A program made the translations under genes and the position numbers. A stretch of 48,000 nucleotides of DNA from Iphinoe sp. HA4291-MV1 (lineage in GTDB: Bacteria > Cyanobacteriota > Cyanobacteriia > Cyanobacteriales > Nostocaceae). The stretch lies in assembly GCA_019359415.1 (NCBI GenBank), contig JAHHHH010000023.1, forward strand, positions 1-48,000. The letters run 5' to 3'. The number at the start of each line of letters is the position of its first letter. The first letter of the stretch is position 1. Under the pieces are notes generated by a model that did not search any database, was not told the DNA's origin, and worked only from the letters and a program-made list of their open reading frames with translations. Positions 4,198 through 31,648 of this stretch are shown one piece after another.

Positions 4198-4243
4198 TGT
4201 GAGAAGGTAAAAATTCGCCACTTCTAATATATGAGTTTTTATA

Positions 4244-5480: not shown

Positions 5481-5501
5481 TTTTGATTTTTGATTTTTGA
5501 A
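5481..5501. repeat. Tandem heptamer TTTTGAT/TTTTTGA x3
   Basis: tttttgatttttgatttttga lies directly upstream of the ATG at 5511. The ORF-track start at 5490 is a TTG inside this repeat and is probably not the real start. Confidence 0.8.
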
Positions 5502-5510
5502 TTTCTCAAT

Positions 5511-5957: not shown

Positions 5958-6034
5958 AAAATTGTTTTGAGCTTATTGCTCAGTTCTCTGCACAAACGGT
6001 TTTTTGAAAACAGAGATCATAAGCTGTTCCACAT

Positions 6035-6350
6035 TTAAATTGCATAATTAGGACGGGCAAGATGCTCCGTTCGCGTAGCGTGTCCAAAGGACAAGATTGG
6101 AGTCTCCTCCAACAGACGCGCAAGGGACGGAGGAAACCTCCCTCCGGGTGAACCTTCTCCTGTCGGAACAGGTGAGCCAACGGATACGCTGAGTCCTCCG
6201 GACACGCACTCGCGTTCGCGAGCGCCAGTCCCCCTACCCTGTCGGGAAGCCGCTCCCTTGTCTACGTGACGGAAACCGCCATCGCTCTTAGCGTCTCCCC
6301 TTGGGAGAAGACGGGGGCTGGACTCACCGCTCCAACTTCTCTCCATCCCA
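6035..6350. repeat. ~300-bp GC-rich composite of nested small dispersed repeats
   Basis: Its reverse complement shares gagaagttggagcgg, cctccgtcccttgcgcgtct and aggagactccaatcttg with the insertion at 19218-19330. It also shares ccttctcctgtcgga (6153-6167) with 26334-26348 and cgttcgcgtagcgt (6068-6081) with 17817-17830. The shared blocks are separated by extra GC-rich inserts, which indicates nesting. The two overlapping ORFs called here (5980..6180, 6035..6346) are low-complexity and probably spurious. Confidence 0.7.
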
Positions 6351-6392
6351 CAAGAGTTACAAAAAATTCCAAGGCTGCAAACTAAATGTGGT

Positions 6393-7727
6393 TTAGCTTA
6401 TCTGATCCGATAGTTCATCTTCGACGAACCGCATGCGGGGATACTGGTAGCCTGCAACAGTTAGTAGCATACTGAAGGCTCCCATAATCATGAACATTAA
6501 GCCAATACCGCGACCAGGTCCAACACCTATGAGTTGTCCGATACTGCTGGCGAAAAGACCGTTGGAAGCCATTAAAGGCTCGAATACGCGGTCAGCTAGC
6601 GGTCCTGCGACAATATAAGCCAGTGGTTGCGATACGGTGGAAATCATTCTTCTCACAGCAAAGACCCTTCCCTGCACTTCGGGCGCGACTTTTCTTTGCC
6701 AGATGACTTGGAGAGAACAATAGATAATTTGCGAACCAAGACCGGATAGGAAAACAGCGACGGCTATGAGTGGGACAGAGGTACGCAACCCGGTGACAAA
6801 GATGCACAGTCCACCCAGTAGGTGGAAAACTAATATACTCTGCATGAGTCGCGTTGGTCCTTTCCAGGTACTTATTACTAGGGTACCCAGCAGCATACCG
6901 ATACCGTCGATGGATAGGATAATGCCGAGCATAGCAGGGGAGGCGAAGGACAACACCAGCGGCGTTGTGAGCACGTTAACGAATCCCAAGATAAAATTAG
7001 TGGTGCTAAAAAGAATGAGTAGTGCTAGCAGTCCTGCTCGGGAAGTGATGTACTTCCAGCCGTAGAGAAGCTCCCAAAGCAGAGAGTTTTCCTCTGCTTC
7101 CTCATCCTCAGTGTCGCTAGTTTTAACGTTAGGGAACCGAACCAAGAGCAGGGTCACCAGGGAGAACAAGAAGGTAGCAAAATCGATTAGAATGACACCT
7201 TGTAGATGGATGGTCACTACCAGTACACCTCCCAACACAGGTATAAGGAGCGATGATAAAGACTCTGCTAGCTCGGTCATGCCGTTGGCACGAGGCAAAA
7301 ACTGTTTGGGCACCAACTGGGGAATGGCGGCGCTATAGGCTGGCCACTGGAAGGCACTGAAGGCGGAACTAATGGCGGTAGCTATGTATACATGCCAGAC
7401 TTCAAGACGATCAGTTGTAAATAAAAGAGCGATCGCTATGGTACTCAGACCAGCGCCGGAGTCACTGAGAATCATAACCCAACGGCGATTCCAACGGTCT
7501 GCCAAAGCGCCAGCCAGGGGAGTCATCAAGATCCCAGGTACATGACTACATACAGAAGCGATCGCAAACTGAGTGACTGAACCTGTGTGTTGGTACACCC
7601 AGATATCTAGAGTGAATTCAGTGAGTTCGGAACCCATGACGGAGATCATTTGTCCAAACCAGACGAGAATAAAGACTCGTATTCCTTTGTTTGCAAGGTG
7701 TTTAGCCATCTTGTTTTCCTCAATCAT
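6393..7727 (-). CDS. MFS transporter of the EntS / MFS_3 (transmembrane secretion effector) type; probable exporter of the NRPS product
   Basis: About 12 predicted TM helices. The N-terminal FILVWFGQMISVMGSELTEF...LAGALADRWNRRWVMILSD is typical of the MFS_3 family. It follows the TE-terminated NRPS directly on the same strand. An alternative start is the ATG at 7709 (MAKHLANK), which has GAGGAA 6 nt upstream and lies 10 nt after the NRPS stop at 7720-7722. Confidence 0.8.
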   Translation of the reverse strand: MIEENKMAKHLANKGIRVFILVWFGQMISVMGSELTEFTLDIWVYQHTGSVTQFAIASVCSHVPGILMTPLAGALADRWNRRWVMILSDSGAGLSTIAIALLFTTDRLEVWHVYIATAISSAFSAFQWPAYSAAIPQLVPKQFLPRANGMTELAESLSSLLIPVLGGVLVVTIHLQGVILIDFATFLFSLVTLLLVRFPNVKTSDTEDEEAEENSLLWELLYGWKYITSRAGLLALLILFSTTNFILGFVNVLTTPLVLSFASPAMLGIILSIDGIGMLLGTLVISTWKGPTRLMQSILVFHLLGGLCIFVTGLRTSVPLIAVAVFLSGLGSQIIYCSLQVIWQRKVAPEVQGRVFAVRRMISTVSQPLAYIVAGPLADRVFEPLMASNGLFASSIGQLIGVGPGRGIGLMFMIMGAFSMLLTVAGYQYPRMRFVEDELSDQIS

Positions 7728-10700
7728 TCGTCTGGGAGCGTTCTAGGTAAACCTGTAGCTTTTCAGCTAGAACCTGGACATTTGGTTTGCTAATCATACT
7801 GTAGTGATCGCCCGGAACCAAGTGGAGCTCTACCCCTTGATTTGCTAACTTGTTCCAGCCTAGGGTTAGGTCCTCAGAATCTGCTTCTACTTCCTCCTGT
7901 GCTAAGAAAAGGGTAATCTTGCCTGGATAAGGTTGGGGGCTGTAGTTGTTTGCGGCTTGGATATGGCTTTTAAAAACTTGCTGTAGACGTTGTGCTTGAG
8001 CTAGTTCCAATTCTGGCGGTATCCCTAATAATGCGCCATTATTCCCCGTAAGTAAATCTTCTAAGAAAGCTACGTCGTCTGCTTCATTTAACTCTTCGTC
8101 CTCTGTAACAGGATAAGTATCTAGCAACGCCAACAAAGACACCTGCTGACCTTGGGCTTGGAGTTGCTGAGCCATTTCAAAGGCTACAAGTCCACCAAAG
8201 CTCCAACCTCCGAGAAGGTAGGGACCTTGCGGCTGAACAGTCTGCATTGCTTCAATGTAATGAGCTGCCATGTCTTCGACCTGAGTGTAAGGCTTGTGTT
8301 CCTCATCCAAACCTAGTGATTCCAGCCCATAAAATGGTTGTTCTGGATCTAGGTGACGCGCTAAATCAACGTACGCTAGAACAGTACCAACACCAGGATG
8401 GACGCAGAAGAAAGGTCGCTTAAAGCCGCCCGACTGAATTGGTACTAGGGTAGACCAAGAGGGAGAATCGGTTGAGGCGCGCAAAAGACTCGCCAGGTGT
8501 TCAATCGTTCCAACTTGGAAGAGTGCAGCCAGGGGCAGATTTTTTCCGAATTGCTGCTGAATCCGAGCCATCAAGCTTATGGCTAAAAGGGAATGACCAC
8601 CGAGATCAAAGAAGTTGTCCCGAACTCCAATAGGATGGACATCCAGAACTTGTTCCCAGATTTGCACCAGTTGCAGTTCTAAGATGTCACTGGGAGGGAC
8701 AAAGTTGTCCTTTAAACTCAGTTTCATATCCGGTGCAGGCAAGGCACGACGATCTACTTTGCCGTTGGGAGTTAGGGGCATCTTCTCCAAACTCACAACC
8801 GCTGATGGTACCATGTACTCGGGTAGTTTCTCCTTGAGGAAATTGCGCAGCTCAGTGGTGCTGACACCAGGTTCGGAGTTGGGAACGACATAACCCACAA
8901 GCTGCTTGTTGCCTGGTTGGTCTTCCCTTGCGATCGCCACCGCTTCCTGCACACTGGGGTGTTGACTCAGCAGTGCCTCTATTTCTCCCAACTCAATGCG
9001 AAAACCGCGAATCTTCACTTGCTGATCAATACGACCGAGAAACTCGATGTTGCCATCAGGTAGATAACGGGCTTTGTCGCCGGTTTTATACAGCCGATTG
9101 AATTTTGAATTTTGAATTTTGAATTTTGAATTTTCAAAGGGGTTGGGGATGAATTTCTCTAGTGTCAACTCTGGGCGATTGAGGTAACCCCTGGCTAAGC
9201 CAGCACCACCGATATACAATTCCCCAGGAACTCCTATAGGAACGCTTTGAAGATGGCAGTCTAGAATATAGACTTGGGTGTTAGCGAGCGGGCGACCGAT
9301 GGGTGGTACAGATTCGCCGTCGGTGCAAACAGCGGTGGTAGCACAGACAGTTGATTCAGTTGGTCCATAACCATTGAAGAAGCGTCGGTTACTAGACCAT
9401 TGCGCTACTAAATTAGGAGGACAAGCTTCTCCCGCCACGATGATAGTCTGCCAGTCTGGCAGTTCCGCAGTAGGCATGGCAGCGAGCGCTGACGGAGGAA
9501 GCGTAGCGTGGGTAATAGCCTGATTATGCATCAGCGAAATCAAAGCTGGTCCTGGAAGCAGAGATTCCCGCGTTCCCAGGCAAAGCCGCGCTCCTGCACA
9601 AAGGGTCATGACAACTTCCGAAATTGAGGCATCGAAACTAAAGGAAGCGAATTGCAGAACACGGCTATGAGATTGGACATCAAAAATGCGAATCTGTTCT
9701 AAAGCAAGGTTGCACAATCCCTGGTGAGCGACAAGGACGCCCTTCGGCTTTCCTGTAGACCCGGAGGTGTAAATCACATAAGCTAAGTTACTCGCTTGCA
9801 CACCAGTGCTTGGATTGTCTTGAGTTTGCCCACAAATGACCCCCCAGTCTGCATCCAAGCAAACCACAGGTGCTGTATGCTCAGGCAGATTTGCCGCCAA
9901 CTTTTGTTGAGTTAACAGCACCTTAACCTGGGAATCTGATAACATGAAGCTTAATCTTTCCTGGGGATATGCTGGGTCTAAAGGTACATAAGCACCACCC
10001 GCTTTGAGAATTCCCAGCAGTCCCACTATCATTTCTAAAGAACGCTCGACGCAGATACCTACGAGTATCTCCGGTTCGACTCCCAAAGTCTTGAGGTAGT
10101 GCGCCAGTTGATTGGCACGTGCATTTAATTGTTGATATGTCAACTGCTGATTTTCAAAGACTACCGCCACTGCGTCCGGTGTCCGTTCCACTTGTTGTTC
10201 AAACAATTGATGGATACACTTATCAGTAGGATATTCTACTTGGGTATCATTCCACTCAAAGAGCAACTGATGTTGCTCGGCTGTACTCAGCAGTGGTAAT
10301 TGAGCAACTGATTGCTCTTGATTAGCTACGATGCCTTCGAGTAAGTTTTGGAAATGTGCAATCATCCGCGCAATCGTGGTCGCATCAAATAAATCGCTGT
10401 TGTACACCAATTCCCCACTCAGTCCTGCTTCCGTTTCCTCCATTGACAACAGCAAATCATGAGTTGCTGTGACTTCCTCCTGTCCCACGAAGGGAGTGAT
10501 GGTCAAACCTGGCAATTCCAGTTCTTCCCCAGGAGTATTCTGCAAGATGAACATTACCTGGAACAGGGGGGAATAGCTCAACGAACGCTCTGGTTGCAGT
10601 TCCTCGACCAGCTTCTCGAAGGGCAAGTCCTGGTGAGCATATGCTCCTAAAGTCATCTCGCGCACCCGTTCTAAAAGCTCACTGAAAGTCGGATTTCCCT

Positions 10701-13700
10701 GAAGTTGGGTACGTAACACCAATGTGTTGACAAAAAAGCCAATGAGTGATTCTATTTCACTATGATTGCGGTTGGCGATCGCAGAACCAACGACGATGTC
10801 CTCCTGACCACTGTAACGTGAGAGTAAAGTGGTAAAAGCTGCAAGCAGGGTCATAAACAGGGTTACACCTGACTGCTGGCTCAGTGTCTTGAGTTTGAGC
10901 GTCAGTTCCCAACTGAGTTGAAATTCTTCAATGCCACCTTGGAATGTCTGTACTGCTGGGCGGGGGCGATCAGTGGGCAGTTCCAATAACGGCGGTGCTC
11001 CTGCTAACTGTTGCTTCCAGTAGTCCAGTTGCGTTTGCAGCACTTCCCCACTGAGCCATTCGCGTTGCCAAGCAGCAAAGTCGGCATATTGAATTGGCAA
11101 CTCTGGTAAGGGGGAAGGCTCCCCTGCACAGAAAGCTTCATAGAGTGCAGACAACTCGTGGATGAGTACCCCCATCGACCAGCCATCAGAAACGATGTGG
11201 TGCATCACCAGTAGCAGTACATGGGATTGTTCCTCCAACCGCAGCAAAGTGACTCGCAGGAGTGGACCATTTGAGAGGTCAAAGGGACGTTGAGCTTCTT
11301 CGCTGGCTAACTGTCCCACCTTAGTGGACTGCTCCTCTTGAGGCAGATGTTGCAGGTCTATCATCGGTAAAGCCACGGTTAAGCTGGGGGCGATGACCTG
11401 TACTGGGGAGCCGTTCACCATCTTAAAAGTCGTGCGCAGAATTTCGTGACGCCGCACGATTTCTTGTATAGCCATTTCCAGAGCGGCTACGTTAAGGGAA
11501 CCGATGAGACGCAGGGGATCTGGTATATTATAAGTGGCAGTTTTTCCCTCCAATTGGTCGAGGAACCACAGTCTAGTTTGAGCAAAGGACAGGGGTAAGT
11601 CTGCGTTCCGTGGAACCGATTTGATGGCAGGCGCATACAACCCCAAATCAGTATGGCGAGTAACTTCTATGAACTCGCTCAGTTCTGCTACAGTGGGGAA
11701 TTCAAACAAACGACGTAGGGGCAGATCCACCTCGAATACAGAGCGTAAGCGAGAAATCACCTGAGTCGCCAACAGAGAATGTCCTCCCAACTCAAAGAAG
11801 TTGTCGTGAATACCAACTTGTTTAAGATCAAGGACTTGTGCCCACAGCTGGGCTAGAATCTCTTCACTAGGAGTGCGCGGAGCAACAAAGCTGTCTTGAC
11901 CCAATTCAAAATCTGGCGCTGGAAGTGCTTTGCGGTCAACCTTGCCGTTAGGGCTGAGGGGCATTTTCTCCAAAGTGACGAATGCTGAGGGCACCATGTA
12001 ATCTGGCAGTTTCTCCTTGAGGAAACTACGCAGTTCATTACTGGTAACAGTTAGCTCAGGGTTGGGAACGACATAAGCAACTAGGCGCTTGTTTGCAGAT
12101 TGGTCTTCACTTGGGTTGACCACCGCCTCCTGTACACAAGGGTTTTGACTCAGTATCGCCTCAATTTCTCCCAACTCAATACGGAAGCCGCGAATCTTTA
12201 CCTGGTAATCAATACGACCAAGAAATTCGATATTGCCGTCACTAAGGTAACGGGCTTTATCACCAGTTTTATACAGACGTGCACCCTCTTGTTGGATAAA
12301 GGGGTCAGCAAGAAAAGCCCGTTGTGTCTGTTGTGGATTATTGAGATAACCACGTCCCACACCAACACCGCCTACGTAGAGTTCTCCAGCCACTCCAATG
12401 GGTGCTGGTTGCAGTTGGCTGTCGAGTACATACAGTTGTGTATTCAACACTGGACGACCAATCGGCAGGTTCAGTATTTCCTCTGAAGGAGGCTCACAAA
12501 TTGGGTAATGGGTGACATCATCTGAGCACTCCGTGGGACCATAGGCATTCAACATTGGGATTGTCGGGTAGTACTCCAACCACTGACGACACAACTGTGG
12601 TGGCAAAGCTTCACCTGTTAGGAGCAACCAACGCAACTCGGACAGTTGGGGTCGAGTAGAACCATTGGGTTCTATCTCCTGGAGTATCATACGCAACAGC
12701 GACGGCACAATCTCTAGAATTGATATTCCCTGAGTTTCCACCAGTTTCAGCAGTTGGGCAGGAGTTGCTGCAATTTCATGGCGGACAATCTCAACTCGTC
12801 CACCCACCAGCAGTGCTGCCAAAAATTGCCAAACACTGATATCAAAAGTCTGAGTCGCAGTTTGCGCCACTACGTCGGTAGCACTTAACTCTAACGTCTC
12901 TACCTTTGCATACAAATGATTCAGCATCCCCCGATGTTCCAGCATTGCTCCCTTGGGCAAACCTGTTGAACCTGAGGTGTAAATCACATACGCGAGATTA
13001 TCGCTTCGAGAACGCACTGGTAGGTTTTCACTTGAGTGCTGTTGTGCGTCCATCTCCTCAAGCCGCAGCAATTTTGGTGCTGTTCCTTCCAGGTTCCCAA
13101 GCGCAGAGATGACTATCGGTTCAAACTCGCTGGCGCTCAGCACTAAGGGCACCTGACTTTGCTCCAACACCTGGCGTATCCGCTCGACTGGATGCTGGGG
13201 ATTGAGCGGTAAGTATGCACCACCTGCTTTGAATACTGCTAGTATTGCTGTTAAGAAATCTATGTTGCGACGCAGGAGCAAAGCGACTATTGTTTCTGGA
13301 CCTACTCCAAACTCGACCAGATGTCTTGCCCAACGATTGGCGCGGGCGTTCAACTCATCGTAAGTGAGTTGCTGGTTTTCAAACACCACTGCGACTGCAT
13401 CTGGAGTGAGTGCTACCTGTGCTTCAAACAACTGAGGAAAACACTCTTTTCGAGGATACTCAACTTGGGTATCATTCCACTCTATCAGTAATTGATGTCG
13501 CTCGGCGGCACTCAGCATTGGTAATTGGGCAACGCTTTGTTGAGGACTAGCAACGATGCTTTCCAGTAAGGTTTGGAAATGTCCAATCATCCGCCTAATC
13601 GTGGTAGCATCAAATAAATCGCTTTTGTATACCAATTCCCCACTCAGCAGCCCTGCTTCCGTTTCTTCCATTGCCAGAAGCAAATCATCCTTTGCCGCGA

Positions 13701-15069
13701 CGCCCTCCAGTTCCAAGGGAGTTAGGGTAAGACCAGGCAGTTCCAGTTCATCGTCCGAGGCATTCTGCAAAATGAACATCACCTGGTACAGGGGGGCATG
13801 ACTCAAAGAACGCTCTGGTTGGAGTTCTTCGACCAGTTTTTCAAAGGGCAAGTCTTGATGGGCATAGGCTCCCAAGGTGATCTCGCGCACTCGTTCTAGA
13901 AGCTCACCGAAAGTAGGATTTCCCTGAAATTGGGTGCGTAGCACCAAGATATTGATAAAGAAGCCAATGAGCGACTCAATTTCACTGCGGTTGCGGTTGG
14001 CGATGAGGGAGCCAATGACGATGTCATCCTGACCACTGTAGCGTGAGAGTAAAGTGGCAAAAGCCGCTAGCAGAGTCATAAACAAGGTTACGCCTGATTG
14101 TTTGCTCAGAATTTTGAGCTTTTGCGTTAGCTCCCGATTGAGTTCAAATTCTTCACTACCACCTTGGAAGGTTTGAACTGATGGGCGGGGGCGATCGGTG
14201 GGGAGTTCCAGCAGGGGCGGTGCTCCTGCTAACTGTTGCTTCCAGTAGCCCAGTTGTGTTTGCAATACCTCACCAGTGAGCCACTGGCGTTGCCAAGCAG
14301 CAAAGTCCGCATATTGGATTGGTAATTCAGGTAAGGGAGAAGGCTTTCCTGCACAGAAAGCTTCATAGAGTGCAGATAACTCGCGGATGAATACCCCCAT
14401 CGACCAGCCATCAGAAATGATGTGGTGCATCGCCAGTAGCAGCACATGGGATTGTTCCCCCAGGCGTAGCAAACTCACTCGCAGTAGGGGACCGTTTGAA
14501 AGGCTGAAGGGGCGTTCAAAGTCGTTATTGGCTAACCATTGGACCTGTGTTGACTGCTCCTGTTTGGGCAAATGTTGCAGGTCGATGATTGGCACAGTTA
14601 TGGTTAAGGTAGGGGTAATAACCTGTGCTGGTGAGCCATTCACCATCTTAAAGGTGGTACGCAGAACTTCGTGACGGCGTATTATTTCTTGTACTGCCAT
14701 TTCCAGAGCGACTACGTTGAGGGAACCAATGAGGCGCATGGTCAATGGTATGCCGTAGGCAGCTTCCCCCTCCAGTTGGTCGATAAACCATAATCTAGTT
14801 TGAGCAAAAGATAGGGGCAGATCTATATTTCGGGGGACTGGAGTAATAGACTCAAAACTAGAATTTGAGTTCAGATTAACCTGCTGCAGAAAATTAATAA
14901 TTTCTACTTTGCGCTCAGCTAATTGAGCACGTATATCTGGTGTCAGTCTTCCCTTTGGAGCGTTACAGCGGAGGCGAACCTCCCCCAAAGTAGTTCCGTT
15001 AACACTCTCTACCCACAGCTGTATATCCAGATTGGCTAGATCAGACAAAAATTCTTCAATATTTTTCAT
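7720..15069 (-). CDS. NRPS, two modules plus thioesterase: docking-C-A-T-C-A-T-TE (modules 5 and 6)
   Basis: N-terminal TubC-like docking domain (MKNIEEFLSDLANLDIQLWVE...LRCNAPKGRLTPDIRAQLAERKVEIINFL). Approximate domain positions: C ~13520-14825 (LSFAQTRLWF, MHHIISDGWS); A ~11930-13440 (LAYVIYTSGSTGLPKG, NAYGPTECSDDV, YKTGD, GRIDYQVKIRGFRIELGEIE); T ~11690-11890 (FFELGGHSL); C ~10290-11600; A ~8750-10230 (SFDASISE, NGYGPTESTVCAT); T ~8520-8720 (FFDLGGHSL); TE ~7723-8470 (GWSFGG, GDHYSM). Confidence 0.95.
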   Translation of the reverse strand: MKNIEEFLSDLANLDIQLWVESVNGTTLGEVRLRCNAPKGRLTPDIRAQLAERKVEIINFLQQVNLNSNSSFESITPVPRNIDLPLSFAQTRLWFIDQLEGEAAYGIPLTMRLIGSLNVVALEMAVQEIIRRHEVLRTTFKMVNGSPAQVITPTLTITVPIIDLQHLPKQEQSTQVQWLANNDFERPFSLSNGPLLRVSLLRLGEQSHVLLLAMHHIISDGWSMGVFIRELSALYEAFCAGKPSPLPELPIQYADFAAWQRQWLTGEVLQTQLGYWKQQLAGAPPLLELPTDRPRPSVQTFQGGSEEFELNRELTQKLKILSKQSGVTLFMTLLAAFATLLSRYSGQDDIVIGSLIANRNRSEIESLIGFFINILVLRTQFQGNPTFGELLERVREITLGAYAHQDLPFEKLVEELQPERSLSHAPLYQVMFILQNASDDELELPGLTLTPLELEGVAAKDDLLLAMEETEAGLLSGELVYKSDLFDATTIRRMIGHFQTLLESIVASPQQSVAQLPMLSAAERHQLLIEWNDTQVEYPRKECFPQLFEAQVALTPDAVAVVFENQQLTYDELNARANRWARHLVEFGVGPETIVALLLRRNIDFLTAILAVFKAGGAYLPLNPQHPVERIRQVLEQSQVPLVLSASEFEPIVISALGNLEGTAPKLLRLEEMDAQQHSSENLPVRSRSDNLAYVIYTSGSTGLPKGAMLEHRGMLNHLYAKVETLELSATDVVAQTATQTFDISVWQFLAALLVGGRVEIVRHEIAATPAQLLKLVETQGISILEIVPSLLRMILQEIEPNGSTRPQLSELRWLLLTGEALPPQLCRQWLEYYPTIPMLNAYGPTECSDDVTHYPICEPPSEEILNLPIGRPVLNTQLYVLDSQLQPAPIGVAGELYVGGVGVGRGYLNNPQQTQRAFLADPFIQQEGARLYKTGDKARYLSDGNIEFLGRIDYQVKIRGFRIELGEIEAILSQNPCVQEAVVNPSEDQSANKRLVAYVVPNPELTVTSNELRSFLKEKLPDYMVPSAFVTLEKMPLSPNGKVDRKALPAPDFELGQDSFVAPRTPSEEILAQLWAQVLDLKQVGIHDNFFELGGHSLLATQVISRLRSVFEVDLPLRRLFEFPTVAELSEFIEVTRHTDLGLYAPAIKSVPRNADLPLSFAQTRLWFLDQLEGKTATYNIPDPLRLIGSLNVAALEMAIQEIVRRHEILRTTFKMVNGSPVQVIAPSLTVALPMIDLQHLPQEEQSTKVGQLASEEAQRPFDLSNGPLLRVTLLRLEEQSHVLLLVMHHIVSDGWSMGVLIHELSALYEAFCAGEPSPLPELPIQYADFAAWQREWLSGEVLQTQLDYWKQQLAGAPPLLELPTDRPRPAVQTFQGGIEEFQLSWELTLKLKTLSQQSGVTLFMTLLAAFTTLLSRYSGQEDIVVGSAIANRNHSEIESLIGFFVNTLVLRTQLQGNPTFSELLERVREMTLGAYAHQDLPFEKLVEELQPERSLSYSPLFQVMFILQNTPGEELELPGLTITPFVGQEEVTATHDLLLSMEETEAGLSGELVYNSDLFDATTIARMIAHFQNLLEGIVANQEQSVAQLPLLSTAEQHQLLFEWNDTQVEYPTDKCIHQLFEQQVERTPDAVAVVFENQQLTYQQLNARANQLAHYLKTLGVEPEILVGICVERSLEMIVGLLGILKAGGAYVPLDPAYPQERLSFMLSDSQVKVLLTQQKLAANLPEHTAPVVCLDADWGVICGQTQDNPSTGVQASNLAYVIYTSGSTGKPKGVLVAHQGLCNLALEQIRIFDVQSHSRVLQFASFSFDASISEVVMTLCAGARLCLGTRESLLPGPALISLMHNQAITHATLPPSALAAMPTAELPDWQTIIVAGEACPPNLVAQWSSNRRFFNGYGPTESTVCATTAVCTDGESVPPIGRPLANTQVYILDCHLQSVPIGVPGELYIGGAGLARGYLNRPELTLEKFIPNPFENSKFKIQNSKFNRLYKTGDKARYLPDGNIEFLGRIDQQVKIRGFRIELGEIEALLSQHPSVQEAVAIAREDQPGNKQLVGYVVPNSEPGVSTTELRNFLKEKLPEYMVPSAVVSLEKMPLTPNGKVDRRALPAPDMKLSLKDNFVPPSDILELQLVQIWEQVLDVHPIGVRDNFFDLGGHSLLAISLMARIQQQFGKNLPLAALFQVGTIEHLASLLRASTDSPSWSTLVPIQSGGFKRPFFCVHPGVGTVLAYVDLARHLDPEQPFYGLESLGLDEEHKPYTQVEDMAAHYIEAMQTVQPQGPYLLGGWSFGGLVAFEMAQQLQAQGQQVSLLALLDTYPVTEDEELNEADDVAFLEDLLTGNNGALLGIPPELELAQAQRLQQVFKSHIQAANNYSPQPYPGKITLFLAQEEVEADSEDLTLGWNKLANQGVELHLVPGDHYSMISKPNVQVLAEKLQVYLERSQTND
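9098..9137. repeat. Tandem heptamer AATTTTG x5 inside the A-domain coding sequence
   Basis: aattttg repeats at 9101, 9108, 9115 and 9122, then aattttc at 9129. On the minus strand this is translated as ENSKFKIQNSKFN, between NPF and RLYKTGD. Confidence 0.9.
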
Positions 15070-18000
15070 AGCTCTATTTCCTCCCGCTCCTCTAAGTCAT
15101 AACTAGAACTGGCTTTTAACTTTTGCACTGTCGAACGAATCTTCTCGATGCTCTCGGCTAAGTCAGCTACAGTGGGAAATTCAAACAAACGACGTAGGGG
15201 CAGATCCACCTCGAACACAGAGCGTAAGCGAGAAATCACCTGAGTCGCCAGCAGGGAATGTCCACCCAATTCAAAGAAGTTGTCGTGAATCCCCACTTGT
15301 TTAAGATTGAGGATTTCCGCCCATAGCTTCGCTAGAATCTCTTCGGTAAGAGTGCGGGGAGCAACAAAGCTGTCTTTGAGACTCAATTCAAGATCTGGCG
15401 CTGGAAGTGCCTTGCGGTCAACCTTACCGTTGGGAGTTAGAGGCATCTTCTCCAAAGTGACGAACGCTGATGGTACCATGTAATCTGGCAGTTTATCCTT
15501 GAGGAAATTGCGCAGTTCACTACTGGTAACAGTTAGCTCAGAATTAGGAACGACATAAGCAACTAGGCGCTTGTTTGCAGATTGATCACCACAAGGGTTG
15601 ACCACTGCCTCCTGCACACAAGGGTGTTGACTCAGTATCGCCTCAATTTCTCCCAACTCAATACGGAAGCCGCGAATCTTCACCTGGTAATCAATACGAC
15701 CGAGAAATTCGATGTTGCCGTCCGGGAGATAACGCGCTTTATCACCAGTTTTATACAGACGTGCACCCTCTTGTTGCGTAAAGGGGTCAGCAAGAAAAGC
15801 CTTTTGTGTCTGTTGTGGATTGTTAAGATAACCACGTCCCACACCAACTCCGCCGACGTAGAGTTCTCCAGCTACTCCAATCGGTACGGGTTGCAGTTGG
15901 CTGTCGAGTACGTAAAGCTGTGTATTCAACACCGCACGACCAATCGGTAGATTCAGTATTTCCTCAGAAGGTGGTGAGAAGATTGGATAATGGGTGACAT
16001 CATCTGAACACTCTGTCGGACCATAGGCATTCATCATCGGGATTGTTGGGTAGTACTCCAACCACTGACGACACAACTGTGGTGGCAGAGCTTCACCCGT
16101 TAGCAGCAACCAATGTAAGGCGGACAACTCAGGTTTGGCAGAATCATTGGCTTCTATTTCCTGGAGTATCATGCGCAACAGCGATGGCACTATCTCTAGA
16201 ATCGATATTCCTTGATGTTCTACTACTGTTAGCAGTTGGGCAGGATCTGCGGCGATCTCATCACGGACAATGTGAACCTGTCCACCGACTAGCAGTGCTA
16301 CTAGAAATTGCCAGACACTAATATCAAAACTTGCAGGAGCGGTTTGCGCTACCACATCGTTTGCATTTAGATGCAAATCTTGTGCCTTGGCATATAAATG
16401 ATTTAACATCCCCCGATGCTCCAGCATTGCCCCCTTAGGTTTACCCGTGGAACCCGAAGTATAAATGACATACGCTAAGTTGTCTGGCTTTGAACGCACA
16501 GGAAGGTTTTCACTTGAGTGCTGTTGTTCTTCCAGTTGTGAGATGTACAACAACTGTGGTGTTGTCCCTTCCAGATTTGTCAGTGCAGAGGTAACTATCG
16601 GTTCAAACTCGCTGGCACTCAACACCAAGGGCACCTGACTTTGCTCGAATACCTGGCGTATCCGCTCAACTGGATGATGTGGATTGAGCGGTAGATACGC
16701 CCCACCTGCTTTGAACACCGCTAGCACTGCTGTCAACAAATCTATATTGCGATCGCTCAACAAGGCAACCACTGTCTGTGCACCAACTCCAAGTTCTACC
16801 AGATGCCTTGCCCAACGATTAGCGCGGGCGTTTAATTGCTGGTAAGTCAACGCAGAGTTTTCAAACACCACTGCCACTGCATCCGGAGTGCGTGCCACTT
16901 GTGCTTCAAACAACTGGGGAAAACACTCTTCTAGGGGATATTCTGCTTTTGTATCATTGTATTCAAAGAGTAACTGATGCCGCTCGGCTGTACTCAGCAT
17001 TGGTAATTGAGCAACGCTTTGCTGGGGATTGGCTACAATACCTTCGAGCAAGGTTTGGAAATGTCCAATCATCCGCTTGATCGTGGTAGCATCAAACAAA
17101 TCCCTGTTGTACAGCAATTCCCCAGTTAGTCCTGCGTTTGTTTCCTCCATCGACAAAAGCAAATCATCAGTTGCGGTGACTTCCTCAACTTCTAAGGGAG
17201 TGATAGTCAAACCAGGCAGTTCCAGTTTCCCCATCGGGGCATTCTGCAAGATGAACATCACTTGGAACAGAGGGGAATGACTCAACGAACGCTCTGGTTG
17301 CAGTTCTTCGACCAGTTTTTCAAAGGGCAAGTCCTGGTGGGCATAAGCTCCCAAGGTGATCTCGCGCACCTGTTCTAAAAGCTCGCTGAAAGTAGGATTT
17401 CCCTGAAATTGGGTGCGTAGCACCAGTGTGTTGGTAAAGAAGCCAATGAGCGACTCAATTTCACTGCGGTTGCGGTTGGCGATCGGAGAGCCAATAACTA
17501 TGTCCTCCTGACCACTGTAGCGTGAGAGTAAAGTGGCAAAAGCCGCCAACAGCGTCATAAACAGGGTTACGCCTGATTGCTGACTCAGAGTCTTGAGCTT
17601 TTGTGTCACCTCCGGATTCAGTTGAAAGTATTCGTTGCTTCCTCGGAAAGTTTGAATCGACGGGCGGGGGCGATCAGTGGGGAGTTCCAGTAAAGGTGGT
17701 GCTCCTGCTAAGTGTTGCTTCCAGTAGTCCAGTTGCGTTTGCAGCACTTCTCCACTGAGCCACTCGCGTTGCCAATCAGCAAAGTCTGCATATTGAATCG
17801 GCAACTCTGGTAAACCAGTTCGCGTAGCGTCTCGCAGAGAAGGCTCTCCACCACAGAAAGCTTTATACAGTGCAGACAACTCGTGAATGAATACCCCCAT
17901 CGACCAGCCATCAGAAACAATATGGTGCATAGTTAGTAGCAGCACATGGGATTGTTCTTCCAACCGCAGCAAACTCACTCGCAGCAGTGGACCATTTGAG

Positions 18001-18446: not shown

Positions 18447-18447
18447 C

Positions 18448-28400: not shown

Positions 28401-29071
28401 GACTTTTCAGTAAAGTAGGCTTCGTAGTGCGCCGCTATCTCTTGGATGAGCACTTGCATAGACCAGCGATCGCTGATAATGTTGTGCATCACGAGAAGCA
28501 GGACATACTCCTGTTCGCCCAGTCGCAGCAAGGTGGCTCGCAGCAACGGTTTATTCGTCAGGTCAAAAGGTCGTGATCGCTCCTCAGTAACTAGTCGTTG
28601 CACTTCGATAGACTGCTCAACTTCTGGCAACAGTTGCCAGTCCACCACTGGTAGCGTCAAGGTTAAGGTGGGGGAAATGACTTGGACTGGTTGCCCATCA
28701 ACGGTTGCAAAGGTGGTTCGCAAATTTTCGTGGCGTCGCACAATCTCATTAAGGCTTTGCTTTAGCGCCGCCACGTTGAGCGAACCCGTCAGACGAACGG
28801 CTGTGAATATGTTATGAAAGGGACTATCTGACTCCAATTGGTCGAGAAACCACAGCCTAGTTTGAGCAAACGATAGTGGCAGTTCGTTAGTGTTTTTCCT
28901 TGGAGAAATCGTTTGTATCTGAGGAATTTCAATTTCTTCTTGCTGTAGCGAGTATGCGATAAGTTCGCGCTTGTGTGCACAAAGTCCAGTTTCATTCGTC
29001 ATTTGGATATTCTGGGATAATTGTGCTTTTGTTAACTTTGCCGCATCATAACTCTTGTAAAAGTCAGTCAT
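22403..29071 (-). CDS. NRPS, two modules: C(degenerate)-A-T-C-A-T (modules 1 and 2) with an acidic C-terminal docking tail
   Basis: Approximate domains: C ~27560-28870 (LSFAQTRLWFLDQ, but the C3 motif reads MHNIISDRWS); A ~25960-27520 (FDIAALE, VMQATPATW, ILCGGEAL, NMYGPTETTIWST); T ~25730-25900; C ~24320-25640 (MHHIVSDGWS); A ~22760-24290 (FDISVWQ, NAYGPTECSDDV); T ~22520-22700; tail ...EEMARILAELEELEEL. The start is uncertain. I used ATG 29071 (MTDFYKSYD); the ORF track extends to 29125. Confidence 0.93.
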   Translation of the reverse strand: MTDFYKSYDAAKLTKAQLSQNIQMTNETGLCAHKRELIAYSLQQEEIEIPQIQTISPRKNTNELPLSFAQTRLWFLDQLESDSPFHNIFTAVRLTGSLNVAALKQSLNEIVRRHENLRTTFATVDGQPVQVISPTLTLTLPVVDWQLLPEVEQSIEVQRLVTEERSRPFDLTNKPLLRATLLRLGEQEYVLLLVMHNIISDRWSMQVLIQEIAAHYEAYFTEKSTPPELSIQYADFAHWQRQRLTGEVLETQLAYWKQQLAGASPVLELPTDRPRLAVQTFQGARELLVLPKPLSESLKALSQEKGVTLFMTLLTAFKTLLYRYTSQEDILVGSAIANRNVETKDLIGLFANTLVLRTQIQGNPTFSELLEQVREMTLGAYEHQDLPFEKLVEELQPERSLSHTPLFQVMFVLENNPGEKLELPGLSITPLEVENVTAKFELTLSMEETESGLRSWWEYNTDLFDAATIKRMADNFQTLLEGIVANPQQQITQLPLLSAVERHKLLFEWNDTQQEYPFDQCFPQLFEQQALSTPNAVAVVFENQQLTYRELNNRANQLAHYLRSLGVGPDVLVGICIERSLEMMVGLLGILKAGGAYVPLDPAYPQERLDFILSDAQVSVLLTDSSQLISSPLAFQNKEDLGNITPPQFKVICLETDWENIATQNAENPVPWAKVNHLAYVIYTSGSTGKPKGVQIEHGALVNFLTSMQRQPGLTQADVLLAVTTISFDIAALELYLPLITGARVELVTREVASDASLLSKQIAAAGATVMQATPATWRMLLAAGWNGVPGLKILCGGEALPSDLVQQLLATGAAIWNMYGPTETTIWSTAFEVGAAQISGTTIPIGRPIANTQIYLLDAELQPVPIGVPGELHIGGVGLARGYLNRPELTDEKFISNPFEKAVRAASPTGEGKRLYKTGDLARYLSDSTIEYIGRSDFQVKIRGFRIELGEIEAVVSQHPAVLQTVVIVREDVPGDKRLVAYIVVHPEQVPPSLSELRHLLKQQLPDYMVPANFVFLDAMPLTPNGKVDRRALPAPDMALSLTTNFVAPCTPTQEVLANLWAEVLSLKQVGIHDNFFELGGHSLLATQVISRLRSVLEVELPLRRLFEFPTVAEFSELIEATRHTGLGLQVPAIEPVSRNADLPLSFAQTRLWFLNQLEGETATYNMPEPLRLTGSLNVVALEMAVQEIVQRHEVLRTTFKMVNGSPVQVITPNLTVTLPVVDLQHLPQQEQSTVVQRLASEERSCPFDLSNDPLLRVSLLRLGEQSHVLLLVMHHIVSDGWSMEIFIYELSALYKAFCAGESSSLPQLPIQYADFAAWQREWLSGEVLQTQLDYWKEHLAGAPPLLELPTDRPRPPVQTFQGSTQYFQLNQEVTQKLKTLSQQSGATLFMTLVAAFTTLLSRYSGQEDIVIGSPIANRTRSEIESLIGFFVNTLVLRTDLSGNPSFSELLKRVREMTLGAYDHQDLPFEKLVEELQPERSLSYSPVFQVMFVLQNAQEGKLELPGLTISSLELEEVTATDDLFVSMEETQAGLSGKLVYNTDLFDATTIERMIGHFQNLLEGIVANPQQPIAQLPLLSTAERHQLLFEYNDTKAEYPLQECFPQLFEAQVARTPDAVAVVFENSVLTYQQLNARANRWARHLVELGVGADTVVALLSDRNIDLLTAILAVFKAGGAYLPLNPHHPVERQAQVFEQSRVPLVLTTSQLEPMVTSAFNTLEVTAPQLLLLEQMEEQQHSSENLPVRSKPDNLAYVIYTSGSTGKPKGAMLEHRGMLNHLYAKAQDLHLSDRDTVAQTAPASFDISVWQFLVALLVGGQVHIIRDEIAADPAQLLTVVEHQGISILEIVPSLLRMILQEIDRNDSTRPQLSKLRWLLLTGEALPPQLCRHWLEYYPIIPMMNAYGPTECSDDVTHYPICEPPSEEMLNLPIGRAVLNTQLYVLDSQLQPVPLGVAGELYVGGVGVGRGYLHNPQQTQRAFIADPFAQQEGARLYKTGDKARYLKDGNIEFLGRIDYQVKIRGFRIELGEIEVVLSQHPSVQEAVVIAREDQPGNKRLVGYVVPKSELTVTSSELRSFLKEKLPDYMVPSAFVTLEKMPLTPNGKVDRKALPEPDPTHSELEGTFVAPRTPVEEVLADIWTEILGLEQVGIHHNFFELGGHSLLATQVISRIYDVFQVKLPLRTLFETQTVADLAVSIVRSMAEETEQEEMARILAELEELEEL

Positions 29072-29308
29072 AGGACATAAATATGGATAAAGTGAACAGA
29101 AGTATGAGTGAGATTTTCTTCTCACTCAAGTAAAATGTTTTACTTATTTAGGTTTAGGAAGTGAAACCAAAGTTTACTTATGTTGAAATCAAGAGATTGT
29201 TGACTAACTAGTTATTTTTGCTGCGCTGTACTAGTTTTTTAGAAAGTCCCATTAGGTCAGTCTTACAGGAAAACACACCCAAATTTTCGTCGAATCATGC
29301 AATGTTTC

Positions 29309-30343
29309 TTAGTGTTCTTCCCGCTCTAACCAAGAAACTGGTAAAAATGATTTTATGGTGGTTCCCTGGTTTTGCGCGATCGCTAATTTGTAGGCTAACT
29401 GACCTAAAGCGAGGTCGAGTACGCCAAGCCCAAAAGGACTGAATATAGCAATTTTGTTATTGTCTTGCCGTGGTGCAACAATGCCATTGAGAACATCGCC
29501 AAGGGTACATCTAATAAAGTTTCTGTTACCCGTTAGTTGTTCAGCTAAGTGAATGGATGTTTGAGCGCGGCAAACATGGTCTACATCATCAACGATGTTA
29601 TCAGCTGATAAGATGATTTCCGGTGACAAGTCTCGTAGAGAAGTGTGCAAAATGATACTATCGGGACGACATTCGGAAATATCGAATATGTGTGGCTTGC
29701 TTGCAGTTGTCGCAAAGCAAATCACTGAGGCATTTTGAAAAATAGCATTGGGTTCTTCAACAATGGCAATTTCCAATTGCTCAGAGAGTTGTTGACACTT
29801 GTGTTTGAATTGCTCCGCTCTTTCCCGACTCAAGTCATAAATTAATAAAGTTTCTATTTCTGGGCGAGTGGCTAAGAGAAAGCGAACAGTTTCAAAATTA
29901 ATCAAACCAGTGCCAATGAGACCGACTGTAGCTAATGATTGTTCGCTTCGCAAGTATTTAGCAGCGATCGCAGCACTCGCAGCAGTGCGTTTTGCACTGA
30001 TGACAGAACTTTCCATAATCGCTTGTGGGTGACCAGTTTGTGCTGAATTTAGGATTAAAACAGCCGAGGCTCGTTCCATACCCAAAGCTAAATTGCCTGG
30101 AAAAGAAGCAATCCATTTGATACCTGCAGTATTCACATCACCACCCAAGTAAGCAGGTAAGGCAATGATTCTATCTTTTTCATTATTCGGAAAACGCAAG
30201 AAATTAGAATGGGGTAAGCTGCTATCGCCTTTAGCATGTGTCTGATAGGCTAATTTGACAGCTTGCAATATTTCCTGATCGCGACCTTTGAAAAGGTTCA
30301 CAATTTCATCGCCTTTTAACAGAAGAATGTTGTTGTCGTTCAT
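29309..30343 (-). CDS. sbnB: SbnB-type NAD-dependent dehydrogenase (ornithine cyclodeaminase/mu-crystallin family), 2,3-diaminopropionate biosynthesis
   Basis: DRIIALPAYLGG...GIKWIASFPGN...MERASAVLILNSAQTGHPQAIMESSVISAKRTAASAAIAAKYL...VGLIGTGLI aligns with my recollection of S. aureus SbnB (DRIIAMPSHIGG...GIKWIGS...MERASGVIILND...). I chose the start at ATG 30343 (MNDNNILLL), which has AGGAGG 7 nt upstream (cctcct at 30351-30356). Confidence 0.85.
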   Translation of the reverse strand: MNDNNILLLKGDEIVNLFKGRDQEILQAVKLAYQTHAKGDSSLPHSNFLRFPNNEKDRIIALPAYLGGDVNTAGIKWIASFPGNLALGMERASAVLILNSAQTGHPQAIMESSVISAKRTAASAAIAAKYLRSEQSLATVGLIGTGLINFETVRFLLATRPEIETLLIYDLSRERAEQFKHKCQQLSEQLEIAIVEEPNAIFQNASVICFATTASKPHIFDISECRPDSIILHTSLRDLSPEIILSADNIVDDVDHVCRAQTSIHLAEQLTGNRNFIRCTLGDVLNGIVAPRQDNNKIAIFSPFGLGVLDLALGQLAYKLAIAQNQGTTIKSFLPVSWLEREEH

Positions 30344-30489
30344 CGTAAACCTCCTATGGTTTGGAAACTTGAATTTTACAAAAGATGGAAAATCTGACTT
30401 GAATAGCACTTAGATAAGCACAAGATAAAGTTGATGAAACCTGAATGACTTGGTAGCTAACACCGTTTCACTTTAAGGTTGATACAAAT

Positions 30490-30545
30490 GGGAATCGAGA
30501 ATTGGAAATTGGGAATCGTCGAGCCTTGCCCATTGCCCATTGCCC
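30490..30545. repeat. Degenerate heptamer array (GGGAATC-type units followed by ATTGCCC-type units)
   Basis: The sequence reads gggaatc gagaatt ggaaatt gggaatc gtcgagc cttgccc attgccc attgccc, between sbnA and sbnB. It belongs to the same heptamer family as the arrays at 22244-22320 and 40894-40942. Confidence 0.75.
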
Positions 30546-30556
30546 TTAACTAACTA

Positions 30557-31648
30557 CTATTCAACATCACCAAAATTCTCCTTAACCCAACTGTCTGAAT
30601 AAACTGTGTCAAGATAGCGCTCACCGCGATCGCACAAAATCACAGCGCAAGTTGCACCAAAAGGAATCTCTTTTGCTTTTTTGGCAATTGCACTTATGAC
30701 TCCTCCTGATGAACCTCCAGCTAAGATTGCCTCTTGACGGAGTAAACGACGGCAGCCCACAATACAATCTTGATCGGTGACATGCATATACTCATCTTCT
30801 AGTCCGGGTTGGAACAACTCTGGAACTCGCGCCGCACCATGTCCTGGTATGAGCCGTTTACCTCGTTTGTCACCAAAAATCACACTCCCTTTAGCATCAA
30901 CAGCAATAATTTTTGTCTTGAGATTGTGAGTTCTGATATATTCAACGCAGCCACGGATTGTACCACAGCTACCAGTCGCGCAGAATAAGTAGTCAAGTTT
31001 GCCATTCAGGGCTGTGACAATCTCGTGCATCGTCTGATGATGAGCATGCGCATTATTAAAGTTGGCATACTGGTTACACCAGAAGCTATTGGGAATGGAA
31101 GCAAGCAATGATTTCACTCGGTTAATGCGAGCTGGCAAAAAATCACCCGTGATTGGATCTGGTTCTGCCACAAGATCAACTTGTGCTCCATAAGCTTTGA
31201 GAATGTTAAGATTTTGTTGCGTGGTTTTAGGATCGACTACACAGATAAACTTTAAACCGAGAACAGTACATGCTTGCGCCAGCCCGATACCTAAATTTCC
31301 TGAACTGGATTCAATAATTGTAGAACCAGGTCCAATATGTCCTTTTGCAAATGCATGTTTCAGCATATTTAAGGCTGGACGGTCTTTGACGCTCCCTCCA
31401 GGATTAAACATCTCCAACTTCGCAAAAAGTTGAAAGTGAGCATCTGGGAAAACTCGTGACAACTTGACCAATGGCGTATTACCGATTATCCCTAAAATCC
31501 CAGAATTGAATAAGGGTACATCTGTGCTTGGGGGAATCTCCACTCTTGAGACAAAGGGCGTTCGCGTAGTGCGCTTCGTTTGTTGATTGCTGCGAGGAGT
31601 TGACTTAGCTGGAGTAAATGGTTTGGTTTTGAGCATTTGATTTGACAT
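30557..31648 (-). CDS. sbnA: SbnA-type PLP-dependent enzyme (cysteine synthase fold), 2,3-diaminopropionate biosynthesis
   Basis: FAKLEMFNPGGSVKDRPA (PLP lysine), ESSSGNLGIGLA, CVVDPK, IAVDAKGSVIFGDK and RGERYLDTVYSDSWV closely parallel S. aureus SbnA as I recall it (IAVDAKGSVIFGDK, RYLDLVYSDTW). The N-terminal ~45 aa extension is low-complexity and contains a dispersed-repeat copy (gcgttcgcgtagtgcgcttcg, about 31569-31589), so the true start may lie further downstream. Confidence 0.85.
   Translation of the reverse strand: MSNQMLKTKPFTPAKSTPRSNQQTKRTTRTPFVSRVEIPPSTDVPLFNSGILGIIGNTPLVKLSRVFPDAHFQLFAKLEMFNPGGSVKDRPALNMLKHAFAKGHIGPGSTIIESSSGNLGIGLAQACTVLGLKFICVVDPKTTQQNLNILKAYGAQVDLVAEPDPITGDFLPARINRVKSLLASIPNSFWCNQYANFNNAHAHHQTMHEIVTALNGKLDYLFCATGSCGTIRGCVEYIRTHNLKTKIIAVDAKGSVIFGDKRGKRLIPGHGAARVPELFQPGLEDEYMHVTDQDCIVGCRRLLRQEAILAGGSSGGVISAIAKKAKEIPFGATCAVILCDRGERYLDTVYSDSWVKENFGDVE

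Follow-up and report, generated by a model that had tools for sequence, protein, structure and literature searches.

The structure reported in 2025 for the third adenylation (A) domain of the sulfazecin synthetase SulM (SulA3) introduced a 'mode 3' pocket for L-2,3-diaminopropionate (Dap), defined by Glu at position 4 and Asp at positions 8 and 9 of the specificity code, DVWEMNADDK in SulA3 (PMC12042044). SulA3 homologs have Ile at position 2 and vary at positions 5-7; the N2411T substitution, which puts Thr at position 6, increased Dap activity; and the pocket was stated to occur in no characterized biosynthetic gene cluster (BGC) besides that of sulfazecin (PMC12042044). The last module of PvdL loads L-2,4-diaminobutyrate (Dab) in the established pyoverdine pathway (PMC12195549, PMC11855355); this L-Dab module itself has a Glu4/Asp8/Asp9 pocket, at variance with the statement that limits mode 3 to sulfazecin. 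SbnA and SbnB, the enzymes of Dap synthesis, are already on record for some cyanobacteria (Mantas et al. 2022, as summarized in PMC9414260). According to PMC9414260, 2,3-diaminopropionate (2,3-DAP) is a proposed precursor of the neurotoxin β-N-methylamino-L-alanine (BMAA), and the SbnA/SbnB route is the only one found in cyanobacterial genomes. Here we describe a locus in which genes for such a pair precede a six-module nonribosomal peptide synthetase (NRPS). It lies in a stretch of 48,000 nucleotides (hereafter, the window) from the metagenome-assembled genome (MAG) of Iphinoe sp. HA4291-MV1, a soil-crust cyanobacterium of the Nostocales; in a homology search, its SbnA and its last NRPS protein were each 100% identical to an Iphinoe sp. 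HA4291-MV1 protein (P0001 and P0124, respectively).

Seven co-directional open reading frames (ORFs) fill positions 6393-31648 of the minus strand, namely sbnA, sbnB, four NRPS genes and a gene for a major facilitator superfamily (MFS) exporter. An earlier annotation made from the DNA letters alone (the sequence-only reading) had placed seven minus-strand genes here, and the ORF coordinates match. Its six-module string of condensation (C), A, thiolation (T) and thioesterase (TE) domains, degenerate C-A-T-C-A-T / C-A-T / C-A-T / TubC dock-C-A-T-C-A-T-TE, was reproduced exactly by Pfam profile matches. On balance, we favor the view that these genes form an intact orphan NRPS cluster that is fed by SbnAB and makes and exports a peptide of the type Gly-Dap-Tyr-Dap-Dap-Tyr. 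The features of the cluster are as follows, in the order of transcription.

30557..31648, minus strand: sbnA, predicted pyridoxal phosphate (PLP)-dependent N-(2-amino-2-carboxyethyl)-L-glutamate synthase (Pfam PALP; the NCBI gene call starts at 31636)
29309..30409, minus strand: sbnB, predicted NAD-dependent dehydrogenase releasing L-Dap (Pfam OCD_Mu_crystall; likely true start ATG 30343)
22403..29125, minus strand: nrps1, modules 1-2, C-A-T-C-A-T (Pfam; likely start ATG 29071)
27551-28903, 25976-27496 and 22751-24250, minus strand: nrps1 domains C1 (degenerate), A1 (Gly) and A2 (X), from Pfam and specificity codes
28466..28486, minus strand: C1 active site, degenerate, with HNIISDR replacing HHxxxDG (from aligning all six C domains)
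21934..22402, minus strand: nrps1-nrps2 spacer, non-coding by the small-ORF listing, 469 bp, with heptamer tandem repeats
18448..21933, minus strand: nrps2, module 3, C3-A3-T3 (Pfam); A3, Tyr-type, at 18844-20412
15066..18446, minus strand: nrps3, module 4, C4-A4-T4 (Pfam); A4 (X) at 15411-16910
7720..15069, minus strand: nrps4, modules 5-6 and release, TubC_N-C-A-T-C-A-T-Thioesterase (Pfam)
14881-15060, 11929-13428, 8746-10203 and 7762-8415, minus strand: nrps4 TubC-type dock, A5 (X), A6 (Tyr-type) and TE, from Pfam and specificity codes
6393..7727, minus strand: MFS_3/MFS_1 efflux transporter, presumed peptide exporter (Pfam MFS_1, 131.7 bits; MFS_3, 71.3 bits)

Both supply genes pass equivalog cutoffs in NCBIfam (SbnA, TIGR03945, 444.6 bits against a cutoff of 350; SbnB, TIGR03944, 425.8 bits against 327), and they are adjacent, 147 bp apart, upstream of the NRPS genes, which bears out the Dap supply claimed by the sequence-only reading. 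Because the family assignment is at the equivalog level, we expect SbnA and SbnB to make Dap, from O-phospho-L-serine and L-glutamate, with SbnA predicted to catalyze the first step. The best PDB match of SbnA is Staphylococcus aureus SbnA (287 bits), whereas cysteine and cystathionine synthases score 194 bits or less, and in the alignment to the S. aureus structure (5d87) the equivalents of the PLP-binding Lys47, Arg132 and Tyr152 are kept.

A motif scan found the core motifs intact in all six A domains (motifs A3, A5, A7, A8 and A10; also checked individually in nrps1, together with the T-domain motif GGHSL), six T domains, five C domains and the TE. With its repeated C-A-T modules, intact motifs and terminal release domain, the system is a modular type I NRPS. 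We read the specificity codes by aligning the six A domains to a fragment of GrsA-PheA, a reference whose own code read back correctly as DAWTIAAICK. A1 gave DILQLGMIWK; A2, A4 and A5 gave the same code, DIWELTADDK (code X); and A3 and A6 gave DASTIAGVCK. We take A1 to be a Gly domain by comparison with typical codes, and A3 and A6 presumably belong with Tyr-type codes of the form DAST[IV]A[AG]VCK. The order proposed before, Gly, diamino acid, aromatic, diamino acid, diamino acid, aromatic, is thus what the codes return. Literature look-ups of DIWELTADDK, ELTADDK, DASTIAGVCK and DASTIAAVCK yielded nothing usable, and DILQLGMIWK turned up in a single survey paper.

If the assembly line is colinear, its six modules in four proteins would start by loading Gly on module 1 and build the all-L hexapeptide Gly-Dap-Tyr-Dap-Dap-Tyr. 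An all-L peptide is expected because C2 is LCL-like (314 bits to the LCL domain TycC-C6 versus 212 and 150 bits to the DCL domains PvdL C4 and SrfA-C) and because Pfam found no epimerization (E) domain in any of the four NRPS proteins. The modules arose by recent duplication (A2, A4 and A5, 83-89% identical; A3 and A6, 91%; C2, C4, C5 and C6, 77-84%).

How the proteins might connect can be read in part from their ends. Acidic C-terminal tails had been claimed in general; we found them on nrps1 (...EELEEL) and nrps3 (...YDLEEREEIEL), but the C-terminus of nrps2 is basic, is encoded by AT-rich DNA and has no acidic tail. The TubC-like dock claimed for the N-terminus of the last protein is present (PF18563, TubC_N, 62.9 bits against a cutoff of 26, nrps4 residues 4-63). 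Two tail/dock pairs are kept between the window and the related locus of Scytonematopsis contorta (L001), the nrps1 tail with the N-terminal 'LSPEKQALL' head of nrps2 and the ...EEREEIEL tail of nrps3 with the TubC dock; hand-over from nrps1 to nrps2 would then use an acidic tail and an N-terminal helix, and hand-over from nrps3 to nrps4 an acidic tail and the TubC-type dock. Between nrps2 and nrps3 the arrangement differs. nrps2 ends inside the T-C linker, at ...PTIAPISRDS, where a normal linker begins, and the C domain resumes at ...PASFAQ; within this T3-C4 linker, the stretch at 18366-18519 (about 150 nt, unique and AT-rich, with 32-42% GC) holds the nrps2 stop, a GGAGAG and the nrps3 start. 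The junction itself reads TAA-G-ATG (the stop ends at 18448, the start is at 18446, and GGAGAG lies upstream), so that the nrps3 start appears translationally coupled to the nrps2 stop via TAAGATG. We infer that a single two-module protein was secondarily split at this point, and that translational coupling would hold its halves together and keep them functional. The other two tight junctions of the sequence-only reading were likewise seen at base level: nrps3 and nrps4 have ATGA in common at 15066-15069, and the first ATG of the MFS gene (7727) overlaps the nrps4 stop (7720), with an alternative ATG at 7709. The TE (Pfam Thioesterase, 135 bits) has its Ser in GWSFG (8194-8208), followed downstream by LLALLD and PGDH with Asp and His; this Ser-Asp-His TE would release the peptide by hydrolysis or by lactamization onto a Dap side-chain amine, and the conserved MFS_3 pump would export it.

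The cluster had been called orphan. Our literature and protein searches (MIBiG, antiSMASH and BiG-FAM lay outside them) found no described product or named homolog, and in that sense the term holds; the locus is not a one-off, however, but a member of a recurrent Nostocales sbnAB-NRPS-MFS family, whose layouts compare as follows.

Window (Iphinoe): sbnAB / Gly-X-Tyr-X-X-Tyr-TE / MFS
Scytonematopsis contorta HA4267-MV1 (L001, P0123): sbnAB / X-Ar-X-X-X-X-TE
L088: sbnAB / X-X-Ser-...-TE
Fischerella sp. CENA71 (L082) and L089: both begin X-Tyr
Calothrix sp. NIES-4071 (L080): X-Tyr only
Nostoc sp. DSM 114160 (L086) and L087: ...X...-TE / MFS / sbnAB

Relatives were also found in Tolypothrix carrinoi and on metagenomic contigs. 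Like the window, these cyanobacterial loci have an sbnA-sbnB head, modules with DIWE[L/I]TADD codes, frequent X-Tyr pairs and a TubC-docked terminal protein, with the TE followed by MFS_3. Unlike it, they vary in the number and order of modules, none has the order Gly-X-Tyr-X-X-Tyr, and none has a known product. SbnB is 70-85% identical to the NRPS-adjacent sbnB products in L001 and L080-L089, and nrps4 is 66-67% identical to P0121, P0122, P0123 and P0143. The contigs of P0121 and P0143 end before the start of the cluster; P0121, P0122 and P0123 are terminal proteins with three X modules. The relatives have three to five X modules, five in Scytonematopsis. The gene immediately after the TE gene belongs to the MFS_3 family in L086, L087, L090 and L091, and the four transporters are 58-68% identical to that of the window, as against about 50-56% for MFS proteins of unrelated NRPS loci. 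The family, small and uncharacterized, would consist of clusters for Dap-rich cationic oligopeptides with a conserved MFS_3 exporter. Two relatives have additional genes, both absent from the window: in Calothrix sp. NIES-4071 (L080), sbnAB is directly preceded by another NRPS gene (1-8096), in whose product a methyltransferase domain is embedded, and in L087 a penicillin-amidase-family gene follows sbnB (12195-14378). These possibly serve tailoring or processing in those relatives.

Several observations weigh against the biosynthetic proposal made above, and we consider them together with the rival explanations on which they bear. One set concerns the X modules. Code X fits the mode 3 definition (Glu4/Asp8/Asp9, with Ile at position 2 and Thr at position 6), and 6 of its 9 pocket positions are identical to those of SulA3; to the A domain of the last PvdL module, however, it is identical at 9 of 9 (DIWELTADD; 9up2/9lcp alignment), so that a predictor based on code look-up would return Dab. 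Comparing whole A domains with solved structures said nothing about specificity; the pocket segment was informative, and a search of solved structures with it returned PvdL first (131 bits, 53.5% identity versus 102 bits and 39% for SulA3). A C-domain query placed two C-like domains upstream of the A domain in the PvdL structure chain, from which it follows that the construct is E-C-A-PCP (PCP, peptidyl carrier protein), the last module of PvdL. The sequence-only reading had passed over this ambiguity between Dap and Dab. Should the X modules load L-Dab as in PvdL, or accept both amino acids promiscuously, one would expect Gly-Dab-Tyr-Dab-Dab-Tyr (linear M = 701.350) or a mixture as the product, with SbnAB serving another purpose or providing only part of the supply. 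The context of the code argues otherwise. We retrieved the neighborhoods of SbnA homologs in Calothrix NIES-4071, Fischerella CENA71, Tolypothrix carrinoi, Nostoc DSM 114160 and three metagenomic/MAG contigs, and the Scytonematopsis locus from an nrps2 search. A DIWE[L/I]TADD A domain is present in 9/9 cyanobacterial sbnAB-NRPS loci (the window and eight others) and in 0/78 NRPS loci, cyanobacterial and other, that have no sbnAB within 10 kb, two of which have other '..DD' pockets. With the window excluded, A domains with a '..DD' pocket number 8 of 14 in sbnAB loci versus 2 of 245 elsewhere (Fisher p ~3e-10), and at least one such domain occurs in 5/5 of the sbnAB loci then tested versus 2/78 (Fisher p ~7e-7), although these p-values overstate independence because the sbnAB loci are phylogenetically related. 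In addition, no Dab-forming aminotransferase of the PvdH/EctB type was found in the 48-kb window, none of the other A domains of the cluster could use the Dap from SbnA and SbnB, and SulA3 shows that a Glu4/Asp8/Asp9 pocket binds Dap. Code identity thus points to Dab, and binding mode and genomic context point to Dap. Given the missing aminotransferase, the lack of another Dap-using A domain and the sbnAB context, we judge it likely that the X modules load Dap; loading of Dab, alone or alongside Dap, seems to us unlikely. The product would also differ if C1 were a lipo-initiation (starter) C domain and the peptide an N-acylated lipopeptide, since C1 stands before the first A domain, as such a domain does in many lipopeptide synthetases. 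Yet C1 shares 63-68% identity with the five catalytic C domains of its own cluster, it has lost the catalytic second His and the Gly of the motif (HNIISDR), and fatty-acyl ligase and acyl carrier protein (ACP) genes were not found in the window. In the relatives, the C domain of the loading module forms a decay series from full length through eroded, a 170-aa fragment and a half domain to absent: its counterpart is eroded in Fischerella (L082; HHTISNS, with the N-terminus MTD(F/Y)(Y/W)K(S/T)YDAAKL in common with the window), a 170-aa fragment in Calothrix (L080), reduced to the C-terminal half in L089, and absent in L001 and L088. C1 therefore reads as a decayed LCL-type elongation paralog, a catalytically dead vestige. 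With this lineage, the dead motif and the vestigial state in relatives, we rule out the lipopeptide reading and leave it next to no weight; since C1 would be a relic rather than a lipo-initiation domain, N-acylation of the product is unlikely and the peptide should have a free, non-acylated N-terminus.

A second question is whether the presumed hexapeptide serves metal acquisition. The sequence-only reading had seen a metallophore look in SbnAB and an EntS-type exporter. For the look speak the SbnA/SbnB pair, best known from staphyloferrin B; the MFS_3 assignment, Pfam's family containing EntS, of a gene next to the NRPS; a siderophore role proposed for cyanobacterial 2,3-DAP by Mantas et al. 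2022 (via PMC9414260); and the amines and phenolates of the predicted peptide, which could chelate Cu, Ni or Zn. The transporter, however, fails the EntS equivalog (NF007792, 99.1 bits against a cutoff of 324) and scores higher with macrolide-efflux models of the Mef type (Mef(B), 126 bits; TIGR00900, 223 bits, also below its cutoff of 320), so that the Pfam family and the position of the exporter stand but its EntS type does not. None of the ORFs of 100 aa or more in the window was found to encode a TonB-dependent receptor, a periplasmic binding protein, an ABC importer or a reductase, and the window holds no enzymes for catechol, hydroxamate, α-hydroxy acid, β-hydroxy-Asp or thiazoline ligands and no heterocyclization (Cy) domains. 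A consensus scan of low power gave no Fur-box-like site of at least 13/19 upstream of sbnA or the operon. SbnAB homologs also feed antibiotics (sulfazecin, capreomycin, alanosine), no less often than they feed siderophores, and relatives with five Dap look polycationic, not chelator-like. The metallophore reading is weakly supported, and a metallophore or siderophore exported by an EntS-like pump is, in our estimation, a rather improbable product. It is also conceivable that the cluster makes nothing. On this account it is a decaying, non-functional relic: the C1 active site is destroyed, nrps2 and nrps3 are split in a T-C linker by about 150 nt of AT-rich filler with no recognizable docking elements on either side, a 469-bp repeat-filled spacer interrupts the operon, and A1, A3 and C4 contain in-frame insertions. 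The one in A3 is a repeat-derived stretch of 40 aa (19216-19335) between motifs A6 and A7 of nrps2; the others lie at 26333-26371 (A1) and at 17814-17840 and 18138-18182 (C4). The insertions in A3, A1 and the first C4 site have 13-50-nt segments (92-100% identity) in common with a GC-rich intergenic repeat block at 5958-6393 and other sites, whereas that at 18138-18182 matches nothing else in the window. The block-matching segments resemble small dispersed repeats whose insertion into domain loops preserves the reading frame, and the three insertions behave like the repeats of this kind found in Nostocales genomes. Reduced or lost function is conceivable in view of these insertions and the missing docking at the split, and the sequence comes from a MAG, in which assembly errors are possible. 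We also note that the SbnA equivalent of Ser185 is Gly in the 5d87 alignment, that phosphopantetheinyl transferase (PPTase) and MbtH genes were not found in the window, and that colinearity, release mode and biological role are what we infer. Nevertheless, the NRPS reading frame runs for about 21 kb without an internal stop or frameshift, and the catalytic motifs of all needed domains are intact. All four insertions interrupt domain alignments, but they sit in loops and keep the frame; the split carries the Shine-Dalgarno-like GGAGAG and the coupled TAAGATG; and C1 is dispensable in a loading module and lost in relatives whose ORFs are otherwise intact. We regard decay to the point that no hexapeptide is made as improbable, more so than either the Dab or the metallophore alternative.

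We predict that the product is a small phenolic peptide with three to four positive charges (linear M = 659.303). With three free β-amines (five in relatives) it has a polycationic look, and for this reason we favor a secreted cationic agent: its most likely role is antagonism or binding to surfaces or anionic polymers. Metal binding by the product is possible, but it is probably not a classical iron siderophore. More tentatively, the Nostocales may possess a class of secreted, SbnAB-fed, Dap-rich polycationic peptides with three to five Dap per hexapeptide, which would be a source of peptide-bound 2,3-diaminopropionate and in which the L-Dab code of PvdL could specify L-Dap. If so, code-lookup predictors mis-call the whole family, and these would be the first cyanobacterial nonribosomal peptides built mainly from L-2,3-diaminopropionate and a new scaffold for cationic peptide discovery. 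They would also give a concrete origin to peptide-bound 2,3-DAP in cyanobacteria, a proposed precursor pool in the BMAA/2,3-DAP debate. For A-domain prediction the family offers a natural experiment, in which the Dab module of PvdL has the same ten-residue code as modules found in a context that favors Dap, and the mode 3 pocket, reported in 2025 as sulfazecin-only among known BGCs (PMC12042044), is widespread in sbnAB-NRPS loci. The interest of the cluster lies in natural-product chemistry and not in a new kind of biology.

Outside the tight junctions the genes are more loosely spaced, by 147 bp between sbnA and sbnB, about 183-237 bp between sbnB and nrps1, and 469 bp between nrps1 and nrps2. 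The last spacer carries heptamer arrays at 22240-22375 (CCCAATT about 10 times, GGGGAGCA 4 times) and is a possible site for an internal promoter; its small-ORF listing gave no MbtH-size ORF with a plausible product. Related GGGCAAT/CCCAATT units are present in the sbnA-sbnB spacer (30410-30556), and the arrays in both spacers resemble STRR-type repeats, which are typical of heterocystous cyanobacteria. In agreement with the sequence-only reading, genes for MbtH, a PPTase, a TonB receptor or a tailoring oxidase came up neither in Pfam searches of all ORFs of 100 aa or more across the 48 kb nor in small-ORF listings of the gaps. The GC content is 45-50% across 6001-30000, with 48-50% in most of the NRPS and MFS genes and a drop to 45-46% towards nrps1 and sbnB; the flank downstream has about 40%, the region upstream 35-45%, and sbnA and sbnB have 41-45%. 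This contrast between the NRPS genes and their flanks may point to a horizontal origin or to a bias in composition.

Two large signaling-type genes (32122-37367) immediately precede sbnA on its own strand, encoding a HEAT-repeat/AAA_16/NACHT-C-terminal protein (829 aa) and an MHYT-GAF-PAS(LOV-like)-MCP-signal protein (901 aa). On the other side of the cluster, a gene for a hotdog-fold 4HBT thioesterase (5490-5957) is convergent to it, with the repeat block between this gene and the MFS gene; the 4HBT protein could be an unrelated neighbor or a trans-acting editing thioesterase. Sites matching the block also occur at 44966-44985 and 2744-2767. We rejected orf103 (6035-6346, 103 aa) as a gene, as it has no family match and lies inside this dispersed-repeat block. 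Further away are a plus-strand pair, phosphotransferase/choline-kinase-like (2959-4197) and HopA1 effector-family (4244-5332; PF17914, 200 bits), a Schlafen AlbA_2 and HATPase_c_4 protein of 618 aa (552-2408) and, adjoining its gene, a weak fragment of a type I restriction-modification specificity domain (76-483). A 571-aa protein with a class-A beta-lactamase domain (46178-47893; Beta-lactamase2, 254 bits) is encoded about 14 kb from the cluster; we mention it because the closest characterized L-Dap A domain belongs to a monobactam pathway, but it is probably unrelated to the cluster.

Among known systems, that of sulfazecin in Pseudomonas acidophila (SulM module 3 with SulG/SulH; A3 structure, PDB 9N1V) resembles the window in having SbnA/SbnB-type Dap genes inside an NRPS cluster and in the mode 3 pocket of SulA3, whose chain our sequence search recovered. 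The codes differ (DVWEMNADDK versus DIWELTADDK, 6/9), the pocket segments are 39% identical, and SulM has one Dap module where the window has three. SulM incorporates Dap as its final residue and its TE forms a β-lactam, whereas the last module of the window is Tyr-type and its TE has a normal Ser nucleophile; we rejected a monobactam reading on this account (terminal code DASTIAGVCK, ordinary GWSFG serine TE). The last module of PvdL (PDB 9lcp/9up2) carries the same DIWELTADD code and is the best solved-structure match to the pocket (131 bits, 53.5%), and in both systems a Tyr-type module adjoins a diamino-acid module. The L-2,4-Dab of PvdL is made by PvdH, however, while the window encodes Dap synthesis with no aminotransferase found, and it has no E domain, no loading module with a fatty acyl-AMP ligase (FAAL) and ACP, and no maturation enzyme of the PvdP/N/O type. 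A pyoverdine-like chromophore formed from the Tyr beside the PvdL-like diamino module was accordingly set aside as very improbable, there being no E domain or PvdP/N/O-like genes. The staphyloferrin B (sbn) operon of S. aureus has the SbnA/SbnB pair in common with the window, and its SbnA is the closest solved structure, but there the synthetases are NRPS-independent and accompanied by dedicated uptake genes, whereas here Dap would feed a modular NRPS and no uptake genes were found in the window. Finally, the tuberactinomycins (viomycin and capreomycin) and the polymyxins combine several diamino residues and dedicated efflux with a polycationic product, much as we predict for the window, and capreomycin likewise has SbnA/B-like Dap genes, CmnB and CmnK. 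The window differs from these systems in host phylum, in module order and in having no genes for capreomycidine, ureido or acyl tailoring, and where the polymyxin A domain uses a mode 2 code (DVGEISSIDK), the X modules have the mode 3 pocket.

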